Source: a virus (lineage: Duplodnaviria; Heunggongvirae; Uroviricota; Caudoviricetes). From it: a DNA stretch of 5,591 nucleotides. The first letter of the stretch is position 1. Each line of letters starts with the position of its first letter. Below the pieces are notes generated by a model. The model searched no databases. It had not been told where the DNA came from and saw only the letters and a list, made by a program, of their open reading frames with translations. The DNA is taken from IMG/VR virus record IMGVR_UViG_2585427777_000009, positions 1-5,591 of that record, one strand, 5' to 3'. Both the position numbers and the translations under genes were made by a program. Of the stretch, positions 1-5,591 are shown one piece after another.

Positions 1-17
1 ACCTTGGTTTAAGAGAA
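1..17. other. Left crossover site in inverted orientation, truncated by the window start (central TT at positions 4-5)
   Basis: Positions 1-17 (ACCTTGGTTTAAGAGAA) are the exact reverse complement of 5114-5130. The outer 9 bp of the site would lie left of the window. Confidence 0.65.
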
Positions 18-148
18 CTCGGTACCAGCGGTGAAAAGATCCCCCTGTTGAGTACGGCTAACACATGGAGTGCGCGCCAGACTTTCAACGGCGGGATCAC
101 CGGGGCGCTGACAGGGAACGCCGACACCGCGACGAAATTAAAAACAGC
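1..148. repeat. Left arm of the segment-flanking inverted repeat (pairs with 4983-5130)
   Basis: Hand-aligned reverse complement of 4983-5130 matches 1-148 with 3 mismatches (positions 53, 107, 140), all third-codon-position synonymous changes. Similarity drops to protein level only beyond 148. Confidence 0.9.
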
Positions 149-2237
149 CATAAACATTAATGGCGTCAGGTTCGATGGTTCGGCTGACATTACGTTGACT
201 CCTAAAGATCTGGACGTTTACAGCAAAAGCGAAATAGACAATAAAAAAGGGATGAGAAAATACACTTTTTCAGCGCCTGCAAATGCAGTAAGCGGTAAGT
301 GGTATCCTATAGTCTTTCGCCGATCTAGAGGCAGTACCGATGAATTAGCCTCACGAGTTGTGATAACTACTTATTCCTCAGCTGGCGGATACGCCATGAA
401 TAATTGTGAATTTAATGGTTTTGTTATGCCTGGCGGTTGGTCTGATCGCGGTTCATATGCGGCTGGTTTTTTCTCAATATATTCTACTGCTGAGCGAGCT
501 ATACACTCGATTATTTCAAGTGTGAAAGATGACGATTTGTGTAGTGTGTTTTACGTTGAAGCCAGAGCATTTCCTATCAAGATATTTGCTGAGGAGGGCT
601 TGAACGTAATTGTTCCAACTACTGACTATACCGTTGGTCAAGCCACCTATAAGTGGGGGGCCACAGATCCAGTAGCAGAAAGTACAAATACTCAAACCAT
701 TCTGGATTTTAAAAATGGACGTGGTTATTACTGCTCACATCAGTTTGTTTCAAGCCTTTCAGGAAATGCAGCAACAGCAACGAAATTAGCAAGTTCAATA
801 AACATAGGTGGTGTATCCTTTGATGGTTCAGCCGATATAGATTTGCCTGGTGTTAATGCGACTGGTAATCAGAACACCACGGGGAATGCGGCGTCTGCCA
901 CGAAATTACAAACGGCAAGAACCATTGGTGGCGTTTCATTTGATGGCTCCGCCAATATCAACCTGCCGGGCGTGAATATTGCTGGTAGCCAGAACACGAC
1001 TGGTAATGCTGCAACCGCAACGAAACTTCAGACGGCCCGCACAATAGGCGGCGTGTCATTCGATGGTAGTGCCAATATCGACCTGCCAGGTGTGAATAAA
1101 ACAGGTAATCAGAGCACAACCGGTAATGCTGCAACTGCAACAAAACTGCAAACAGCACGCACAATAGGCGGCGTGTCATTCGATGGCTCCGCCAATATCA
1201 ACCTGCCGGGTGTAAACATTGCTGGTAACCAGAACACAACCGGTAATGCAGCGACAGCGACCAAGTTACAAACCGCTAGAACTATAAATGGGGTGTCGTT
1301 TGACGGTTCTAAAAACATTGAGCTAACTCCAAGGTCTATAGGCACGATCAACTCAGCAACAATGTCTTTTAGTGGTGGTGCCGGATGGTTCAAGCTGGCA
1401 ACTGTAACCATGCCACAAGCCAGTTCCGTGGTTTACATAAGCCTGATTGGTGGCGCAGGGTTTAACGTTGGCTCCCCGCAGCAAGCAGGCATCTCTGAGC
1501 TGGTTCTGCGTGCAGGAAATGGGAACCCCAAAGGTATTACTGGTGCATTATGGCGACGGACCTCGGTTGGATTTACTAATTTTGCATGGGTGAATACATC
1601 CGGTGATACCTATGACATTTATGTAGAAATAGGTAATTACGCCACAGGTGTTAATATCCAGTGGGATTATACCAGTAACGCCAGCGTAACGATTCATACA
1701 TCACCAACTTATACAGCGAATAAACCAACAGGCCTGACAGATGGAACTGTATATGTAATTTACAGTTCGCACATTAAACCGACTGCTGCTGATGTTGGGG
1801 CGTTATCATTATCTGGAGGTCAATTGAATGGTGCACTGGGCATCGGTACATCCAGTGCTCTTGGCGGTAACTCGATTGTTTTGGGTGATAATGACACGGG
1901 CTTTAAACAAAATGGCGACGGTAATCTGGATGTTTATGCTAATAACGTCCATGTTATGCGCTTTGTCTCCGGTAGCATTCAAAGTAATAAAACCATAAAT
2001 ATTACGGGGCGTGTTAATCCCTCGGATTACGGTAACTTTGATTCCCGCTATGTGAGAGATGTCAGACTTGGCACACGTGTTGTCCAGACCATGCAGAAAG
2101 GGGTGATGTATGAGAAAGCAGGGCATGTAATTACAGGGCTTGGTATTGTCGGTGAAGTCGATGGTGATGACCCCGCAGTATTCAGACCAATACAAAAATA
2201 CATCAATGGCACATGGTATAACGTCGCACAGGTGTAG
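1..2237 (+). CDS. Tail fiber protein, alternative variable C-terminal cassette (Sv'-like), silent in this orientation; 5' end is the crossover site and it has no start of its own
   Basis: Frame is open from position 3 ([22 protein letters not shown]...), identical to the minus-strand fiber across the inverted repeat. The TTG at 48 used by the ORF track is not a real start. Contains repeated [32 protein letters not shown] fiber-shaft motifs and a C-terminal [26 protein letters not shown]...NGTWYNVAQV module shared with the other fiber. Stop TAG at 2235-2237, followed 3 nt later by a tfa gene. Confidence 0.85.
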   Translation, partial: LGLRELGTSGEKIPLLSTANTWSARQTFNGGITGALTGNADTATKLKTAININGVRFDGSADITLTPKDLDVYSKSEIDNKKGMRKYTFSAPANAVSGKWYPIVFRRSRGSTDELASRVVITTYSSAGGYAMNNCEFNGFVMPGGWSDRGSYAAGFFSIYSTAERAIHSIISSVKDDDLCSVFYVEARAFPIKIFAEEGLNVIVPTTDYTVGQATYKWGATDPVAESTNTQTILDFKNGRGYYCSHQFVSSLSGNAATATKLASSINIGGVSFDGSADIDLPGVNATGNQNTTGNAASATKLQTARTIGGVSFDGSANINLPGVNIAGSQNTTGNAATATKLQTARTIGGVSFDGSANIDLPGVNKTGNQSTTGNAATATKLQTARTIGGVSFDGSANINLPGVNIAGNQNTTGNAATATKLQTARTINGVSFDGSKNIELTPRSIGTINSATMSFSGGAGWFKLATVTMPQASSVVYISLIGGAGFNVGSPQQAGISELVLRAGNGNPKGITGALWRRTSVGFTNFAWVNTSGDTYDIYVEIGNYATGVNIQWDYTSNASVTIHTSPTYTANKPTGLTDGTVYVIYSSHIKPTAADVGALSLSGGQLNGALGIGTSSALGGNSIVLGDNDTGFKQNGDGNLDVYANNVHVMRFVSGSIQSNKTINITGRVNPSDYGNFDSRYVRDVRLGTRVVQTMQKGVMYEKAGHVITGLGIVGEVDGDDPAVFRPIQKYINGTWYNVAQV
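762..1331 (+). repeat. Tandem 120-bp in-frame coding repeats (40-aa phage fiber-shaft repeat), about 4.75 copies
   Basis: Units at 762-881, 882-1001, 1002-1121, 1122-1241 and a partial unit 1242-1331. Each encodes [40 protein letters not shown]. Exact nucleotide runs of about 30 bp recur between units (e.g. cgcacaataggcggcgtgtcattcgatgg at about 1037 and 1157). Confidence 0.9.
2040..2237 (+). repeat. Internal diverged inverted repeat: conserved fiber C-terminal module (pairs with 3332-3529)
   Basis: The last ~65 codons of the two fibers are about 85% identical at nucleotide level by eye and about 90% at protein level (DSRYVRD(V/I)[18 protein letters not shown]...NGTWYNV(A/S)QV). Confidence 0.8.
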
Positions 2238-2240
2238 TTT

Positions 2241-2768
2241 ATGCAGCATTTAAAAAATATTACTGCGGGTAATCCAAAAACTGTTGCCCAGTATCAACTG
2301 ACAAAAAATTTTGATGTTATCTGGTTATGGTCCGAAGAGGGAAAAAACTGGTATGAGGAAGTAAGTAATTTTCAGGAAGACACGATAAAGATTGTTTACG
2401 ATGAAAATAATATTATTGTCGCCATCACCAGAGATGCTTCAACGCTTAACCCTGAAGGTTTTAGCGTTGTCGAGGTTCCTGATATTACTGCCAACCGACG
2501 TGCTGATGACTCAGGTAAATGGATGTTTAAGGATGGTGCCGTGATTAAGCGGATTTATACGGCAGACGAACAGCAGCAACTGGCAGAATCACAAAAGGCA
2601 ACTTTGCTTTCCGAAGCCGAATCCGTGATTTTGCCGCTGGAGCGCGCTGTCAGGCTGAATATGGCAACAGATGAGGAACGCAGCCGACTGGAAGCATGGG
2701 AACGCTACAGCGTTCTTGTAAGCCGCGTGGATACGGCAAAGCCAGAATGGCCACAAAAACCTGAGTAA
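2241..2768 (+). CDS. Tail fiber assembly chaperone (Tfa; Mu U / lambda Tfa family), partner of the plus-strand fiber cassette
   Basis: 175-aa ORF starting at ATG 2241, 3 nt after the fiber stop. N-terminus [41 protein letters not shown] with internal [18 protein letters not shown] and C-terminal PEWPQKPE are recalled from memory as typical of enterobacterial phage Tfa proteins. N-terminal ~105 aa are ~75% identical to the minus-strand paralog. Stop TAA at 2766-2768 is followed by a hairpin terminator. Confidence 0.85.
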
Positions 2769-2772
2769 AAAT

Positions 2773-2796
2773 AAGGCCCGATAACGGGCCTTTTCT
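2773..2796. terminator. Bidirectional rho-independent terminator between the convergent tfa genes
   Basis: 8-bp stem (aaggcccg 2773-2780, complementary to cgggcctt 2785-2792) with loop ataa. It is flanked by T-runs on both strands (ttttct on plus; tattttt on minus, from 2764-2772). It lies between the plus tfa stop (2766-2768) and the minus tfa stop (2796-2798). Confidence 0.6.
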
Positions 2797-3329
2797 CATT
2801 CTGGTTGTTCGGGAAACGTTACTGGCAGGCTGGAGGTGTCTGTAGATTCGACTTTCTGCGCATAGAGCATCCACTCGGTTAATTTTTGTTTATTCTCGTC
2901 GGAAATGATGCCCAGCCGTAGCTGTGAGTCCCATAGCTGGGTTTTATCCCTGACAAGTTGCAACAGGCTTTGCTTTTCATTCTCTGCCTGCTGCCTCTGT
3001 TCCTCCTCGGTATAAGTTCGCTTTATCACTACGCCATCTTTGAACATCCATTTCCCCGAAATATCAGCCCGGCGATTTGCTGTAATATCAGGCAACTCAA
3101 CGACACTTAAACCTTCTGGATTAATTGCCGATACATCTTTATCCATAGCAACAATTATTCCATCTACAGTGTAAGCCAGTTTTATTGTATCTTCCTGAAA
3201 GTTTTTCACTTCCTCATACCAGTTTTTTCCATCTTCGGACCATAACCAGATAACATTAAAATTCTTTGTTAGCTGATATTGTTCAACGGTTTTTGGATTA
3301 CCTGCGACAATGTTTTTTAAATGCTGCAT
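2796..3329 (-). CDS. Tail fiber assembly chaperone (Tfa; Mu U / lambda Tfa family), partner of the minus-strand (expressed) fiber
   Basis: 177-aa ORF. Its ATG (complement of 3327-3329) lies 2 nt after the fiber stop (3332-3334). N-terminal half is a paralog of the plus-strand Tfa ([41 protein letters not shown]); the C-terminal ~70 aa are divergent. Ends in ...PEQPE, with the stop at 2796-2798 abutting the central hairpin. Confidence 0.85.
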
Positions 3330-3331
3330 GA

Positions 3332-3529
3332 TTATACCTGCGATACGTTATACCATGTTCCGTTAATTAACTTTTGTATTGGTCTGAATACTGCCGGATC
3401 ATCGCCATCAACTTCACCGACAATGCCAAGCCCCGTAATTGCATGACCTGATTTCTCATACATCACGCCTTTTTGCATAGTCTGAACAACACGTGTGCCC
3501 AGGCGAATATCTCGTACATAGCGAGAATC
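3332..3529 (-). repeat. Internal diverged inverted repeat: conserved fiber C-terminal module (pairs with 2040-2237)
   Basis: See the partner feature at 2040-2237. Confidence 0.8.
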
Positions 3530-5591
3530 CGATTCAGCTTTGGTATATGCACCAACATCCCCCGCAGAGGGTTTGCGGGTTGTGGTGTAAAACTCTGACC
3601 AGTTAGCTTCAAAGCCATAACCATCACGCGCTGAACGATAAAAGATACCGCCGTTCTTATAATTCACGCGGAACTGTACAGCAGGGCAACTCCCCGCATT
3701 CATATTGAAGTGGAGGATTAATGTCGATGCACCACTGATATCTGCATCATAAACACCGCTATTCCAGTTCCAGCCAACAGCTTTATCATTTGCAACCCTG
3801 CTTCCTGTTTGCCCTAAAGCGAATGCAGGCTGCTGGTTTTTCGTGTTGTAGTCTCGTCGCCAGCCAGGAGCATAAGCATCACCATGATTAATATAAGTGA
3901 ATTGAGCGTTAGTGATGCCGCCTCCGGTGGAAGTGCTTGGTGTTGTTACACGGATGGTCATGGCACCTTTATTGCCCATAACTTCAATAACGCAACCCGC
4001 AAGGTGAATAAGTCCACATCCGGTGTCAGTAATAATTTTATTATTGCCGTATGACCATGAGCATTTACACATCCAGTATGGATGATTGAAGGCCCACTGA
4101 GATTCCAGCCATTCAATAAATTGCGCCGTCGTCCAGTTTCCTGCACCTGTGCTAATAGAGCCATGAAAAGAGCGGCAAGCACCTATTGTTTGCGTAAATT
4201 TATCTTTGTTTGGAATATCTGCGCCGTTCTGGTTTTTCTGTAATGCTCCTGCGGCTAATTCTACAGTTTGCTCAAGATTTAAATCTGCCGCCGTTAGCTC
4301 AATATTTTTAGAACCATCAAACGACACCCCATTTATAGTTCGAGCGGTTTGTAACTTGGTCGCTGTCGCTGCATTACCTGTTGTATTCTGATTGCCAGTG
4401 GCATTAACACCAGGTAAATTAATATTCGCAGTACCATCAAAGCTAACTCCGCCGATAGTTCTTGCCGTCTGTAGTTTTGTAGCGGTCGCTGCATTGCCAG
4501 TTGTATTCTGATTGCCAGTGGCATTCACACCAGGAATGGAGTCCCTTGATGTATAGACCTGCGCCCAATCTGACCATGCAGCATCTGTTGTATCCCTACG
4601 GGAACGAATGAATGCCGGTGCATGTGCGCCACTTGTACCACTCCACCCAATAAGCAACTCTCCCTCACCAGCAGCACTCGCCCCTTTCATATGCAGAACA
4701 TTGCCGAATGATGTTGGGTAACTATTGCTATATGCTTCATACATTTGAATACCAGCAGTACCCTGAGTAGAGCCACTTAACGCCGTTACGGGCCCGCGTG
4801 ATACCAATGTATTAATGTTGATATCGCCTGAGCCATCAAACTTAACACCATTGATGTTTCTCGCCGTCGCAAGTTTTGTCGCGGTAGCAGCATTCCCCGT
4901 GGTGTTCTGGTTACCAGTTGTATTTACACCTGGAAGATTGATATTGGCCGAGCCATCAAATGCCACACCGCCAATAGTGCGTGCTGTTTTCAATTTCGTC
5001 GCGGTGTCGGCGTTCCCTGTCAGTGCCCCGGTGATCCCGCCGTTGAAAGTCTGGCGCGCACTCCATGTGTTAGCCGTGCTCAACAGGGGGATCTTTTCAC
5101 CGCTGGTACCGAGTTCTCTTAAACCAAGGTATTGGATAACGGCCAGTGTGCTTGTTTTAGCCAGAATATCGCGACCGACTGACGTTAAATCAGTCTGCGC
5201 TACCGTATCCTTACCAGTGAAATAAGGCAGTTTGTTTGCACCAGTCGCAAGGGCAGCGAGCGCGGTTAAAGTTGCATCCAGAGGCTGTTTGCCTGCCAGC
5301 GCATTTGTCATTGTTGTCGCAAAGTTCGGGTCATTGCCCAGTGCTGCTGCAAGCTCATTCAGGGTATCAAGAGCTTCAGGTGATGAGCCGACCAATGCAG
5401 AGATAGCAGCTCTTACATAAGCGGTCGTAGCAATCTGCGTGTTATTCGTACCCTGTGCAGCGGTAGGCGCAGTAGGTATTCCCGTTAATGCAGGACTTGC
5501 TAAAGGCGCTTTAAGGGCCAGAGCATTGTTGATAGTTGTGCTGAAATTCGGGTCGTTATTGATCGCAGCCGCTATTTCTTTCAGCGTATCC
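3332..5591 (-). CDS. Tail fiber protein in the expressed orientation: conserved N-terminal region (continues beyond the right window edge) fused in frame to a variable C-terminal cassette; 5' partial
   Basis: The minus-strand frame stays open upstream of the TTG at 5395 chosen by the ORF track, to the window end (my translation of 5396-5461: ...[22 protein letters not shown] then [25 protein letters not shown]), which is a typical phage tail-fiber N-proximal motif. It crosses the crossover site at 5114-5139 in frame. It contains two blocks of fiber-shaft repeats and a Cys/Trp-rich distal domain, and ends ...[65 protein letters not shown]. Confidence 0.9.
4292..4537 (-). repeat. Two tandem 120-bp fiber-shaft repeats in the minus-strand fiber (aa ~287-368)
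   Basis: Direct repeats are visible on the plus strand (gcattacctgttgtattctgattgccagtggcattaacaccagg at about 4370 and gcattgccagttgtattctgattgccagtggcattcacaccagg at about 4490). Translation gives [21 protein letters not shown](G/N)GVSFDG twice. Confidence 0.8.
4808..5017 (-). repeat. First block of fiber-shaft repeats in the minus-strand fiber (about 1.75 units), partly inside the flanking inverted repeat
   Basis: Encodes [40 protein letters not shown] followed by [30 protein letters not shown]. The counterpart motif in the plus-strand module is at about 114-203. Confidence 0.75.
4983..5130. repeat. Right arm of the segment-flanking inverted repeat (pairs with 1-148)
   Basis: See left arm. 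The repeat extends outward into the crossover site (to 5139), whose left-hand counterpart is outside the window. Confidence 0.9.
5114..5139. other. 26-bp DNA-invertase crossover site (hix/gix/cix family), right copy: TTCTCTTAAACC-AA-GGTATTGGATAA
   Basis: Imperfect palindrome of two 12-bp half-sites around a central AA dinucleotide (5126-5127). It closely resembles hixL (TTCTTGAAAACCAAGGTTTTTGATAA) and gixL (TTCCTGTAAACCGAGGTTTTGGATAA) as I recall them. It sits exactly at the outer boundary of the inverted repeat and inside the fiber reading frame. Confidence 0.75.

Follow-up and report, generated by a model that had tools for sequence, protein, structure and literature searches.

The Cin-invertible C-segment of phages P1 and P7, which has kin in the G segment of Mu and the Min region of plasmid p15B, is the closest described counterpart of the DNA analyzed here, a stretch of 5,591 nucleotides (nt) that we call the window (positions 1 to 5,591 of the IMG/VR virus record IMGVR_UViG_2585427777_000009, Caudoviricetes). 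The window is itself a P1/P7-type C-segment of a P1-like phage-plasmid, with two convergent fibre and chaperone cassettes, and our subject is a tandem array of 120-base-pair (bp) coding repeats in the fibre gene of its silent, + strand cassette. Repeat-built fibre shafts and mosaic fibre genes are long established, mosaic tail fibre genes being common to P1, P2, Mu and lambda, and the finding is biologically unsurprising. In T-even phages, conserved motifs in the distal fibre genes reportedly recombine and swap adhesin specificity, as Tetart, Desplats and Krisch are said to have described in 1998. We consider it likely that the present array is a shaft module array of a P1-type fibre that also acts as a recombination adaptor, with old, protein-conserved units whose number changes rarely, in the course of ordinary modular fibre evolution.

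The element shares with the P1/P7 segment identical cix sites, a resolvase-family invertase gene adjoining in longer contigs, convergent fibre parts with Caudo_TAP chaperones, a constant part that reads across cixR, and a flipped isomer. It differs in carrying four full repeat units in one cassette, whereas P1 has none per cassette and P7 has none or one; the repeats annotated in the P1 record (a0, a1, b1 and b2) are others, all in the constant part. It also differs in that its cassettes are mosaics: no record in three annotated collections (phage, plasmid and complete Escherichia coli) matched the window in full, the best match covering 85% at 89% identity. As in the fibre mosaics of the T-even phages and of P1, P2, Mu and lambda, short conserved coding motifs mark the module joints, here the unit borders and the terminal core of the array. 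Unlike in the T-even mosaics, the motif is a 40-residue tandem unit of variable number, and exchange spans P1-like phage-plasmids, side fibres of lambdoid prophages (locus L006) and a plasmid of 112 kb that belongs to a different type (L002). LtfA of T5-like phages likewise has tandem coding repeats in its shaft, in a block of 19-residue units, and direct nucleotide repeats common to two fibre genes have been proposed there as recombination hot spots (PMC4728585); those repeats are unrelated to ours in sequence and unit length and come without an invertible segment.

A conserved protein repeat on diverged DNA

Tandem Repeats Finder reported a repeat at 765-1286 with a period of 120, 4.3 copies, 75% matches, 0% indels and a score of 477. 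In the reading frame, the array runs from 762 to 1325, with units beginning at 762, 882, 1002, 1122 and 1242 and a length of 4 x 40 + 28 residues, or 4.7 units; the fifth unit keeps the consensus for 28 residues, up to 1325, and then departs into the distal domain. An initial annotation of this DNA had placed about 4.75 units of 40 amino acids here, and Tandem Repeats Finder, the reading frame and a hidden Markov model (HMM) of the unit all confirmed the repeat. The relevant parts of the + strand fibre are the following.

114..197, + strand: isolated 28-residue core P0 (unit HMM positions 1-28), just inside the crossover site
198..761, + strand: non-repeat proximal domain of 188 residues, upstream of the array
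762..881, + strand: unit P1, full 40 residues (in-frame comparison, unit HMM)
882..1001, + strand: unit P2, full, 82% identical to P4
1002..1121, + strand: unit P3, full; a unit in L015, in its opposite cassette, is 99% identical
1115..1129, + strand: direct repeat CACAACCGGTAATGC, 15 nt, copy 1, at the P3/P4 border
1122..1241, + strand: unit P4, full, absent from relative L019
1235..1249, + strand: direct repeat CACAACCGGTAATGC, 15 nt, copy 2, at the P4/P5 border
1242..1325, + strand: terminal 28-residue core P5 (unit HMM 1-28), directly joined to the distal domain
1326..2237, + strand: distal domain of 303 residues plus stop codon, receptor-binding and chaperone-binding

The gap between P0 and the array is constant at 188 residues in the window and in more than 100 homologues.

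The unit profile was built from the full units and run on the window, 33 related loci and 268 related proteins. Each unit consists of a 28-residue core and a 12-residue linker, PGVNxxGNQNTT, and the array comprises five cores and four linkers. The window and all of its relatives follow one grammar, in which F denotes a full unit, h the 28-residue core and t a 13-residue tail (positions 28-40): h stands wherever a non-repeat domain comes next, and t where the repeat resumes past an inserted domain. There is a single fixed insertion point for globular domains, after unit residue 28, and the frequent insert sizes among the relatives are 88-92, 102, 188 and 249 residues. With the lengths of non-repeat domains given in brackets, the + cassette reads h-[188]-FFFFh-[303] and the expressed, - strand fibre reads Fh-[92]-tFh-[320], the latter being composed as follows.

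4295..5017, - strand: repeat units of the expressed fibre (unit HMM matches)
5017-4898, - strand: full unit
4897-4814, - strand: core
4813-4538, - strand: 92-residue insert
4537-4499, - strand: unit tail
4498-4379, - strand: full unit
4378-4295, - strand: terminal core, M4

The expressed fibre had been described as about 2 + 1.75 units split by a domain of about 90 amino acids; the insert was correctly recognized, and the count is instead 1.7 + 2.0. In four viral and metagenome contigs (L024, L026, L028 and L029), an array and an 88-residue insert form a larger module that is itself repeated a variable number of times, as in h-[102]-FFFFh-[88]-tFFFh-[88]-tFFh versus h-[102]-FFh-[88]-tFFh versus h-[102]-FFh.

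The repeat exceeds chance by far; what is conserved in it is the protein sequence, and the DNA beneath has diverged. Between pairs of full units, nucleotide identity is 68-83%, which does not bear out their earlier description as near-identical, and residue identity is 72-95%. The ratio of nonsynonymous to synonymous change (dN/dS) among them is 0.03-0.12, and synonymous differences (pS) reach 0.43-0.79, near saturation. The longest exact in-register runs are of 29 nt, in agreement with the matches of about 30 bp noted initially, and are found at 1038-1066/1158-1186 (P3/P4) and at 942-970/1182-1210 (P2/P4). The next exact runs, of 15 nt (1115-1129/1235-1249) and 14 nt, lie at unit borders.

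For each pair, we counted the identical codons at residues that both units share and set the count against that expected from a random synonymous draw based on the codon usage of these genes. P3 and P4 had 24 identical codons where 12.3 were expected (z = +4.2), and P2 and P4 had 20 where 13.3 were expected (z = +2.4). Apart from these two pairs and the pair P5-M4, which joins the two cassettes and is described below, all pairs were at random expectation, with z from -1.6 to +1.9. The units are old duplicates held alike by selection at the protein level, and their DNA has drifted about as far as synonymous codons permit. The nucleotide similarity of most pairs is what the conserved protein imposes, and RecA-dependent unequal crossing-over within the array therefore has a poor substrate. 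Selection for synonymous divergence as a means of suppressing recombination was considered and rejected, since codon sharing is at, and not significantly below, random expectation.

Copy number among relatives and how it changes

All eight close relatives (L001 and L011-L017), which are 96-99.8% identical over the aligned stretch, keep the FFFFh array. It was found in pEP91B-2, a complete circular plasmid (98.6% identical), and in seven other independent contigs, from isolates as well as metagenomes. These records bear on the possibility that array length, in the window or in the relatives that differ from it, is an artefact of short-read assembly, as might be suspected of a short draft contig that ends at repeats. 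The same four units in a complete plasmid and in seven independent contigs speak against this, as does the three-unit form, for which there are two independent records, from E. coli and Salmonella respectively. Moreover, the units differ at 17-32% of positions, so that reads are placed unambiguously. We regard an artefact as scarcely credible.

Architectures were then counted among the best 120 homologous protein clusters, with the following results.

[188]-array-[303]: 1 full unit, 9 clusters; 2 units, 36; 3 units, 2; 4 units, 13
Other distal domains (310-311 residues): 1 unit, 35 clusters; 2 units, 1; 3 units, 0; 4 units, 1

Three more FFFFh proteins in the [303] group are truncated at the N-terminus. 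Ahead of the 303-residue distal domain, the four-unit array accounted for 17 of 19 cases (three of the 17 truncated) versus two of 19 for the three-unit array. Between the same flanks, relatives carry one, two, three or four full units, as expected from the initial suggestion that fibres would differ in steps of 40 residues, and the same-flank span is exactly 360 nt shorter in more than 20 complete E. coli genome records. In a library of 1.84 billion proteins, the unit profile matched 11,690 clusters (50% identity; E up to 0.001), with up to 15 unit-matching stretches within one protein. Within the 150 best of these 11,690 clusters, runs of consecutive full units were distributed by length as follows.

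1 unit, 198 runs
2 units, 50 runs
3 units, 22 runs
4 units, 10 runs
6 units, 2 runs
7 units, 1 run
9 units, 1 run

Copy number varies over evolutionary time. The DNA of the units has drifted near the synonymous limit, and the array therefore appears to be stable within a lineage and not hypermutable.

A single-unit difference was seen in L019 (protein P0017), which corresponds to the window minus exactly unit P4: 120 nt are absent, and there are no mismatches over 420-1129 and 1242-1930, flanks of roughly 700 nt apiece. P3 and P4 both end in the 15-nt direct repeat CACAACCGGTAATGC, and the junction is located within it. P0018, an independent record from Salmonella, has the same order, P1-P2-P3-P5. 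It would be more parsimonious for L019 to have lost P4 than for the window lineage to have gained it, because units in the order P3-P4-P5 are met again in P0008 and in L015, there in the opposite cassette, and P4-P5 in L002 and L008; P3-P5 is known from one context. An exact-pattern scan of viral and metagenome contigs gave no second nucleotide example of the P3|P5 junction, and it brought up more array architectures. RecA-independent deletion between short, close direct repeats is established in E. coli genetics, and the L019 junction, being as expected from slippage or short-homology deletion, fits such an event. Locus L009 (pMTY12355_3) points to a recent tandem duplication together with exchange between arrays of one gene, as its adjacent units 2 and 3 are 98% identical with a 77-nt exact run, and unit 7, in the second array of the same gene, is 99% identical to unit 2.

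A natural one-unit variant such as L019 and a recent duplication such as that in L009 might also be produced by a hypermutable contingency locus, in which frequent slippage or RecA-dependent unequal crossing-over would generate several fibre lengths on the time scale of infection. The array is tandem, in frame and free of indels, and its direct repeats of 29 and 15 nt are spaced 120 or 240 nt, all of which would suit such a locus. However, its units are far from the near-identical DNA that a contingency locus would contain, with most pairs sharing codons no more than by chance. Four units persist in all eight close relatives and in 17 of the 19 close clusters whose arrays have three or four, and the missing unit of L019 represents a single event type, with no ladder of variants. 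A contingency locus is thus very unlikely. The expansion and contraction by slippage or RecA proposed in the initial annotation finds a counterpart in the L019 variant at the 15-nt repeat, but its RecA-driven part lacks a good substrate, and the array does not appear to be unstable.

The alignments also showed exchange between arrays: every unit of the window has a closer relative elsewhere than inside its own array. The one full unit found in L004 and in L006 matches unit P1 at 92% identity, including an exact run of 92 nt, and L002 and L008 contain units that are 100% identical to P4 and P5. A block of 835 nt, window 1121-1955, begins at the P3|P4 border and is 100% identical to L002 4725-5559, in a fibre gene of the 112-kb plasmid pYLPD4a, and L008 carries the same block at 98%. 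The neighbours of the pYLPD4a gene encode a TipJ-type tail tip and a 'receptor-recognizing protein', and the element is not P1-like. Judging from the alignment, the 835-nt block most probably reflects a distal half-fibre that moved very recently from one element to an unrelated one. Its right border (about 1955) roughly coincides with the end of the L019 identity (1931).

Blocks of very high identity with sharp borders were thus found in otherwise unrelated fibre genes. In addition, window 216-949 is 94% identical to the side fibre of a lambdoid prophage (L006), L004 aligns with the window at a clean in-register offset of 360 nt, and P0008 and P0036 are three-way mosaics that combine the 188-residue domain of the + cassette, an Fh-[92]-t part of the - cassette type and the 303-residue distal domain. 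We also considered whether the homology blocks that start at 882/885, 1002 and 1121/1122 mark recombination joints. Most of them arise simply because a shorter array aligns in register, and as evidence of joints we accepted only the block that begins at 1121 with 100% identity and the clean offsets of 120 and 360 nt. In L004 (an ETEC1720 plasmid), an IS3-family element at 4564-5793 lies within the distal part of the homologous cassette, which is probably inactive.

The array lies between the 188-residue proximal and 303-residue distal domains, in the currently silent Cin/cix half, and its unit number probably changes on rare occasions, by two routes. One would be deletion between short direct repeats at unit borders, as in L019, and the other is in-register recombination joining the arrays of different fibres, as in the mosaic relatives and the 835-nt block. 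Arrays, and above all their terminal core, probably serve as common adaptors by which proximal parts, knobs and distal domains are reshuffled among P1-like, lambdoid and other fibres.

The two cassettes of the window also share homology in inverted orientation. Array-to-array inverted matches extend over 190-242 nt at 71-80% complementarity and are a poor substrate for homologous recombination. The exception is the pair of terminal cores, P5 (1242-1325) and M4 (4378-4295), which share 96% identity and contain exact runs of 36 and 25 nt; 25 of their 28 shared codons are identical where 10.2 are expected, and the flanks are unrelated on both sides. This island has the look of a recombination joint or of recent gene conversion. 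The opposite cassette of L015 contains an FFFh array that copies P3, P4 and P5 at 99, 100 and 96%, and the locus has an internal inverted repeat of 449 nt (5028-5476 versus 1614-2062, equal to window 879-1327). In L034, each cassette carries a unit 99-100% identical to P4. Because L015 and L034 have near-same arrays in both cassettes, array exchange between the cassettes of one segment occurs in nature. The initial annotation had expected the repeats, shared between the two orientations, to provide homology for recombination between the cassettes. Such homology exists, its only strong part in the window being the terminal core, and L015 and L034 bear out the exchange.

A second, Cin-independent form of shuffling is conceivable, though we think it doubtful: recombination across the terminal-core island would invert the inner part of the segment and re-pair the distal domains with other shafts. 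If this took place, it would move both distal domains and both chaperones, and two cassettes could give rise to four fibres differing in length and specificity. The arrays of L015 and L034 would then be the footprint of such an inner exchange.

What the units may do

No model of the unit was found in Pfam, searched with whole proteins and with the array alone at E up to 10, or in NCBIfam, and the literature searched contained no description of the 40-residue unit or of its copy-number variation. The initial annotation had pointed to the phage fibre repeat family. PF03406 (Phage_fiber_2) is indeed a family of repeats of about 40 residues present in the same proteins, but its sole match in the full-length fibre is another motif, at residues 174-205 of the constant part (EFSNEISSTEERKAATPLAVKTLHDLVDTKAP), and against the 194-residue array its profile gave no match at E up to 10.

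The only structural match obtained with the unit profile was to residues 98-129 of the phage L protein Dec (PDB 6e3c, chain 6e3c_C; E 0.0014), which has the motif NAxTAxKLxTARTI...FDGSANV. Dec differs in that the motif occurs once, with seven residues inserted when compared with the unit, and in being a capsid protein instead of a fibre. Its C-terminal segment of about 36-40 residues is all-beta, folds only upon trimerization and holds the trimer as a spike, and the atomic structure of this segment is debated between a beta-helix model and an AlphaFold antiparallel model (PMC11398494). By analogy with Dec, each unit would add a short stretch of an intertwined all-beta trimeric shaft, and the number of units would set the local length of the fibre. 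This view draws on the Dec match, the very low dN/dS, the occurrence of the same unit before many distal domains and the fixed insertion point for knobs.

Alternatively, the units might be ligand-binding modules, for example for a surface polysaccharide, and additional copies would increase avidity and not length. Their linker, PGVNxxGNQNTT, is polar and probably exposed, the arrays are directly proximal to the receptor-binding domain, and neither the solved structures nor our model offers anything to set against this idea. However, a near-same unit precedes distal domains of 303, 310, 311, 320 and 429 residues and occurs in the fibres of unrelated phages, which suits a structural adaptor better. 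The related segment of Dec is a trimerization spike, and at such low dN/dS, diversifying selection was not seen. We therefore think ligand binding improbable and favour the shaft module.

Several points weigh against the shaft module and its proposed history. The unit is absent from solved structures, as the sequence search of these matched only the C-terminal end of the fibre, to the Mu S and S16 fibres: the C-terminal 78 residues of the 303-residue domain match the structure of Mu tail fibre protein S (5yvq, E 7e-16), and the distal domain has a weaker match to the distal subunit of the S16 long tail fibre (6f45). An AlphaFold2 monomer model of the array was unusable, with a mean predicted local distance difference test (pLDDT) score of 43, and was excluded from the fold search; it consists of all-beta strands with a 40-residue period, at that unreliable score. 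The structural role of the units is assigned by analogy, and the loss of P4, as opposed to its gain, is an argument from parsimony.

Tail fibres set the host range of phages, and P1-like phage-plasmids commonly carry resistance genes in E. coli and Salmonella. According to these data, one 40-residue module provides a common joint for moving distal receptor-binding parts between P1-like, lambdoid and other fibres, and its borders are natural in-register splice points for the engineering of chimeric fibres. The module also explains why short-read assemblies break at these loci. A family model and a trimer structure would help to annotate many phage proteins now called 'hypothetical' or 'beta strand repeat-containing'. 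In pAMPD01 (L003 1366-5463), a 1365-residue fibre with units is misannotated in RefSeq as a 'short-chain fatty acid transporter'. Worth keeping from this analysis are the variant that cleanly lacks one unit, the block at 100% identity in an unrelated plasmid, the inverted terminal-core island, and a widespread module that has neither family model nor structure.

The surrounding invertible segment

The whole window is one draft contig, JOST01000095.1 (locus L018, protein P0001), of E. coli 5-366-08_S4_C1. Its remaining features are listed below.

1..17, no strand: inner half of cixL, truncated where the contig ends; window 4/5 is equivalent to the annotated P1 crossover
3..2237, + strand: silent variable fibre cassette (Sv-type), frame open from the window start; constant N-terminal part absent in the present orientation
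2241..2768, + strand: tail fibre assembly chaperone (U-type) of the + cassette (Pfam Caudo_TAP, E 7e-35; PHROG 136)
2773..2792, no strand: hairpin, terminator-like on both strands, between the convergent cassettes
2796..3329, - strand: tail fibre assembly chaperone (U'-type) of the - cassette (Pfam Caudo_TAP, E 5e-34)
3332..5591, - strand: expressed fibre, a 752-residue frame open to the window end (PHROG 454, E 1e-236)
5114..5139, no strand: complete cixR, TTCTCTTAAACCAAGGTATTGGATAA on the + strand, within the reading frame of the expressed fibre

The element showed every tested feature of a P1/P7 C-segment. Two inverted cix sites are present, the left one truncated here and whole in L019 and L011. 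The reverse complement of 5114-5139, TTATCCAATACCTTGGTTTAAGAGAA, is identical to P1 cixR, and the inner side of P1 cixR and cixL is identical to window 1-30. Window position 1 aligns to L022 3001, 4 nt off the crossover annotated at 3004/3005 in the P1 record. Inverted arms at 1-184 and 4947-5130, 90% complementary, bound the segment. With its first base 4 nt from the annotated Cin crossover, the contig ends where the assembly broke at the inversion joint, which is expected if the 184-nt inverted repeat or a culture of mixed orientation confused the assembler.

Only one of the two variable fibre parts, that on the - strand, is fused to the constant part, which runs from 5591 down to about 5140 and continues through cixR into the variable part; the - fibre is therefore the expressed one and the + cassette is silent. 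Each variable part is followed by its own Caudo_TAP chaperone. This arrangement supports the initial reading of the locus as the expressed and silent cassettes of an invertible segment. The + cassette matches PHROG tail fibre families with E down to 7e-199 and becomes the C-terminal part of the fibre once the segment flips. Its open reading frame as listed is 48-2237, and the database annotation presents the silent cassette as a free-standing protein of 729 residues with a TTG start. Both orientations were found among the relatives. L016 is the flipped isomer, 99.84% identical across window 1-5130 with the constant part attached at the other side, so that the + cassette is joined to the constant part in a protein of 1148 residues (P0004); the + cassette is also in expressed form in L015 and in L001, the complete circular plasmid pEP91B-2.

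The serine invertase gene lies outside the window. A gene of 186 residues with Resolvase and HTH_7 domains is present in L011-L014, L019 and L020, and in the longer contigs it ends about 40 nt ahead of the equivalent of window position 1. Longer contigs with the same chaperone protein carry P1 lydB, darA and ddrB on the window-1 side and the P1 tail fibre gene R and gene 16 on the other.

Within the window, there was one sigma-70-like promoter match, compared with 9.7 +/- 3.1 in shuffled sequences, which is consistent with both cassettes relying on the upstream late promoter of the fibre operon. The hairpin at 2773-2792 is GC-rich, with eight pairs and T-runs after it on each strand, and is likely a bidirectional terminator. 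Between the two cassettes, the starts of the chaperones are conserved over the first 115 codons (2241-2587/2983-3329, 77% complementary), and the ends of the fibres over the last ~65 codons (2040-2236/3333-3529, 84% complementary). The middle of the distal domains differs between the cassettes, and the part of the fibre end that is conserved has its match in the C-terminus of Mu protein S (PDB 5yvq).

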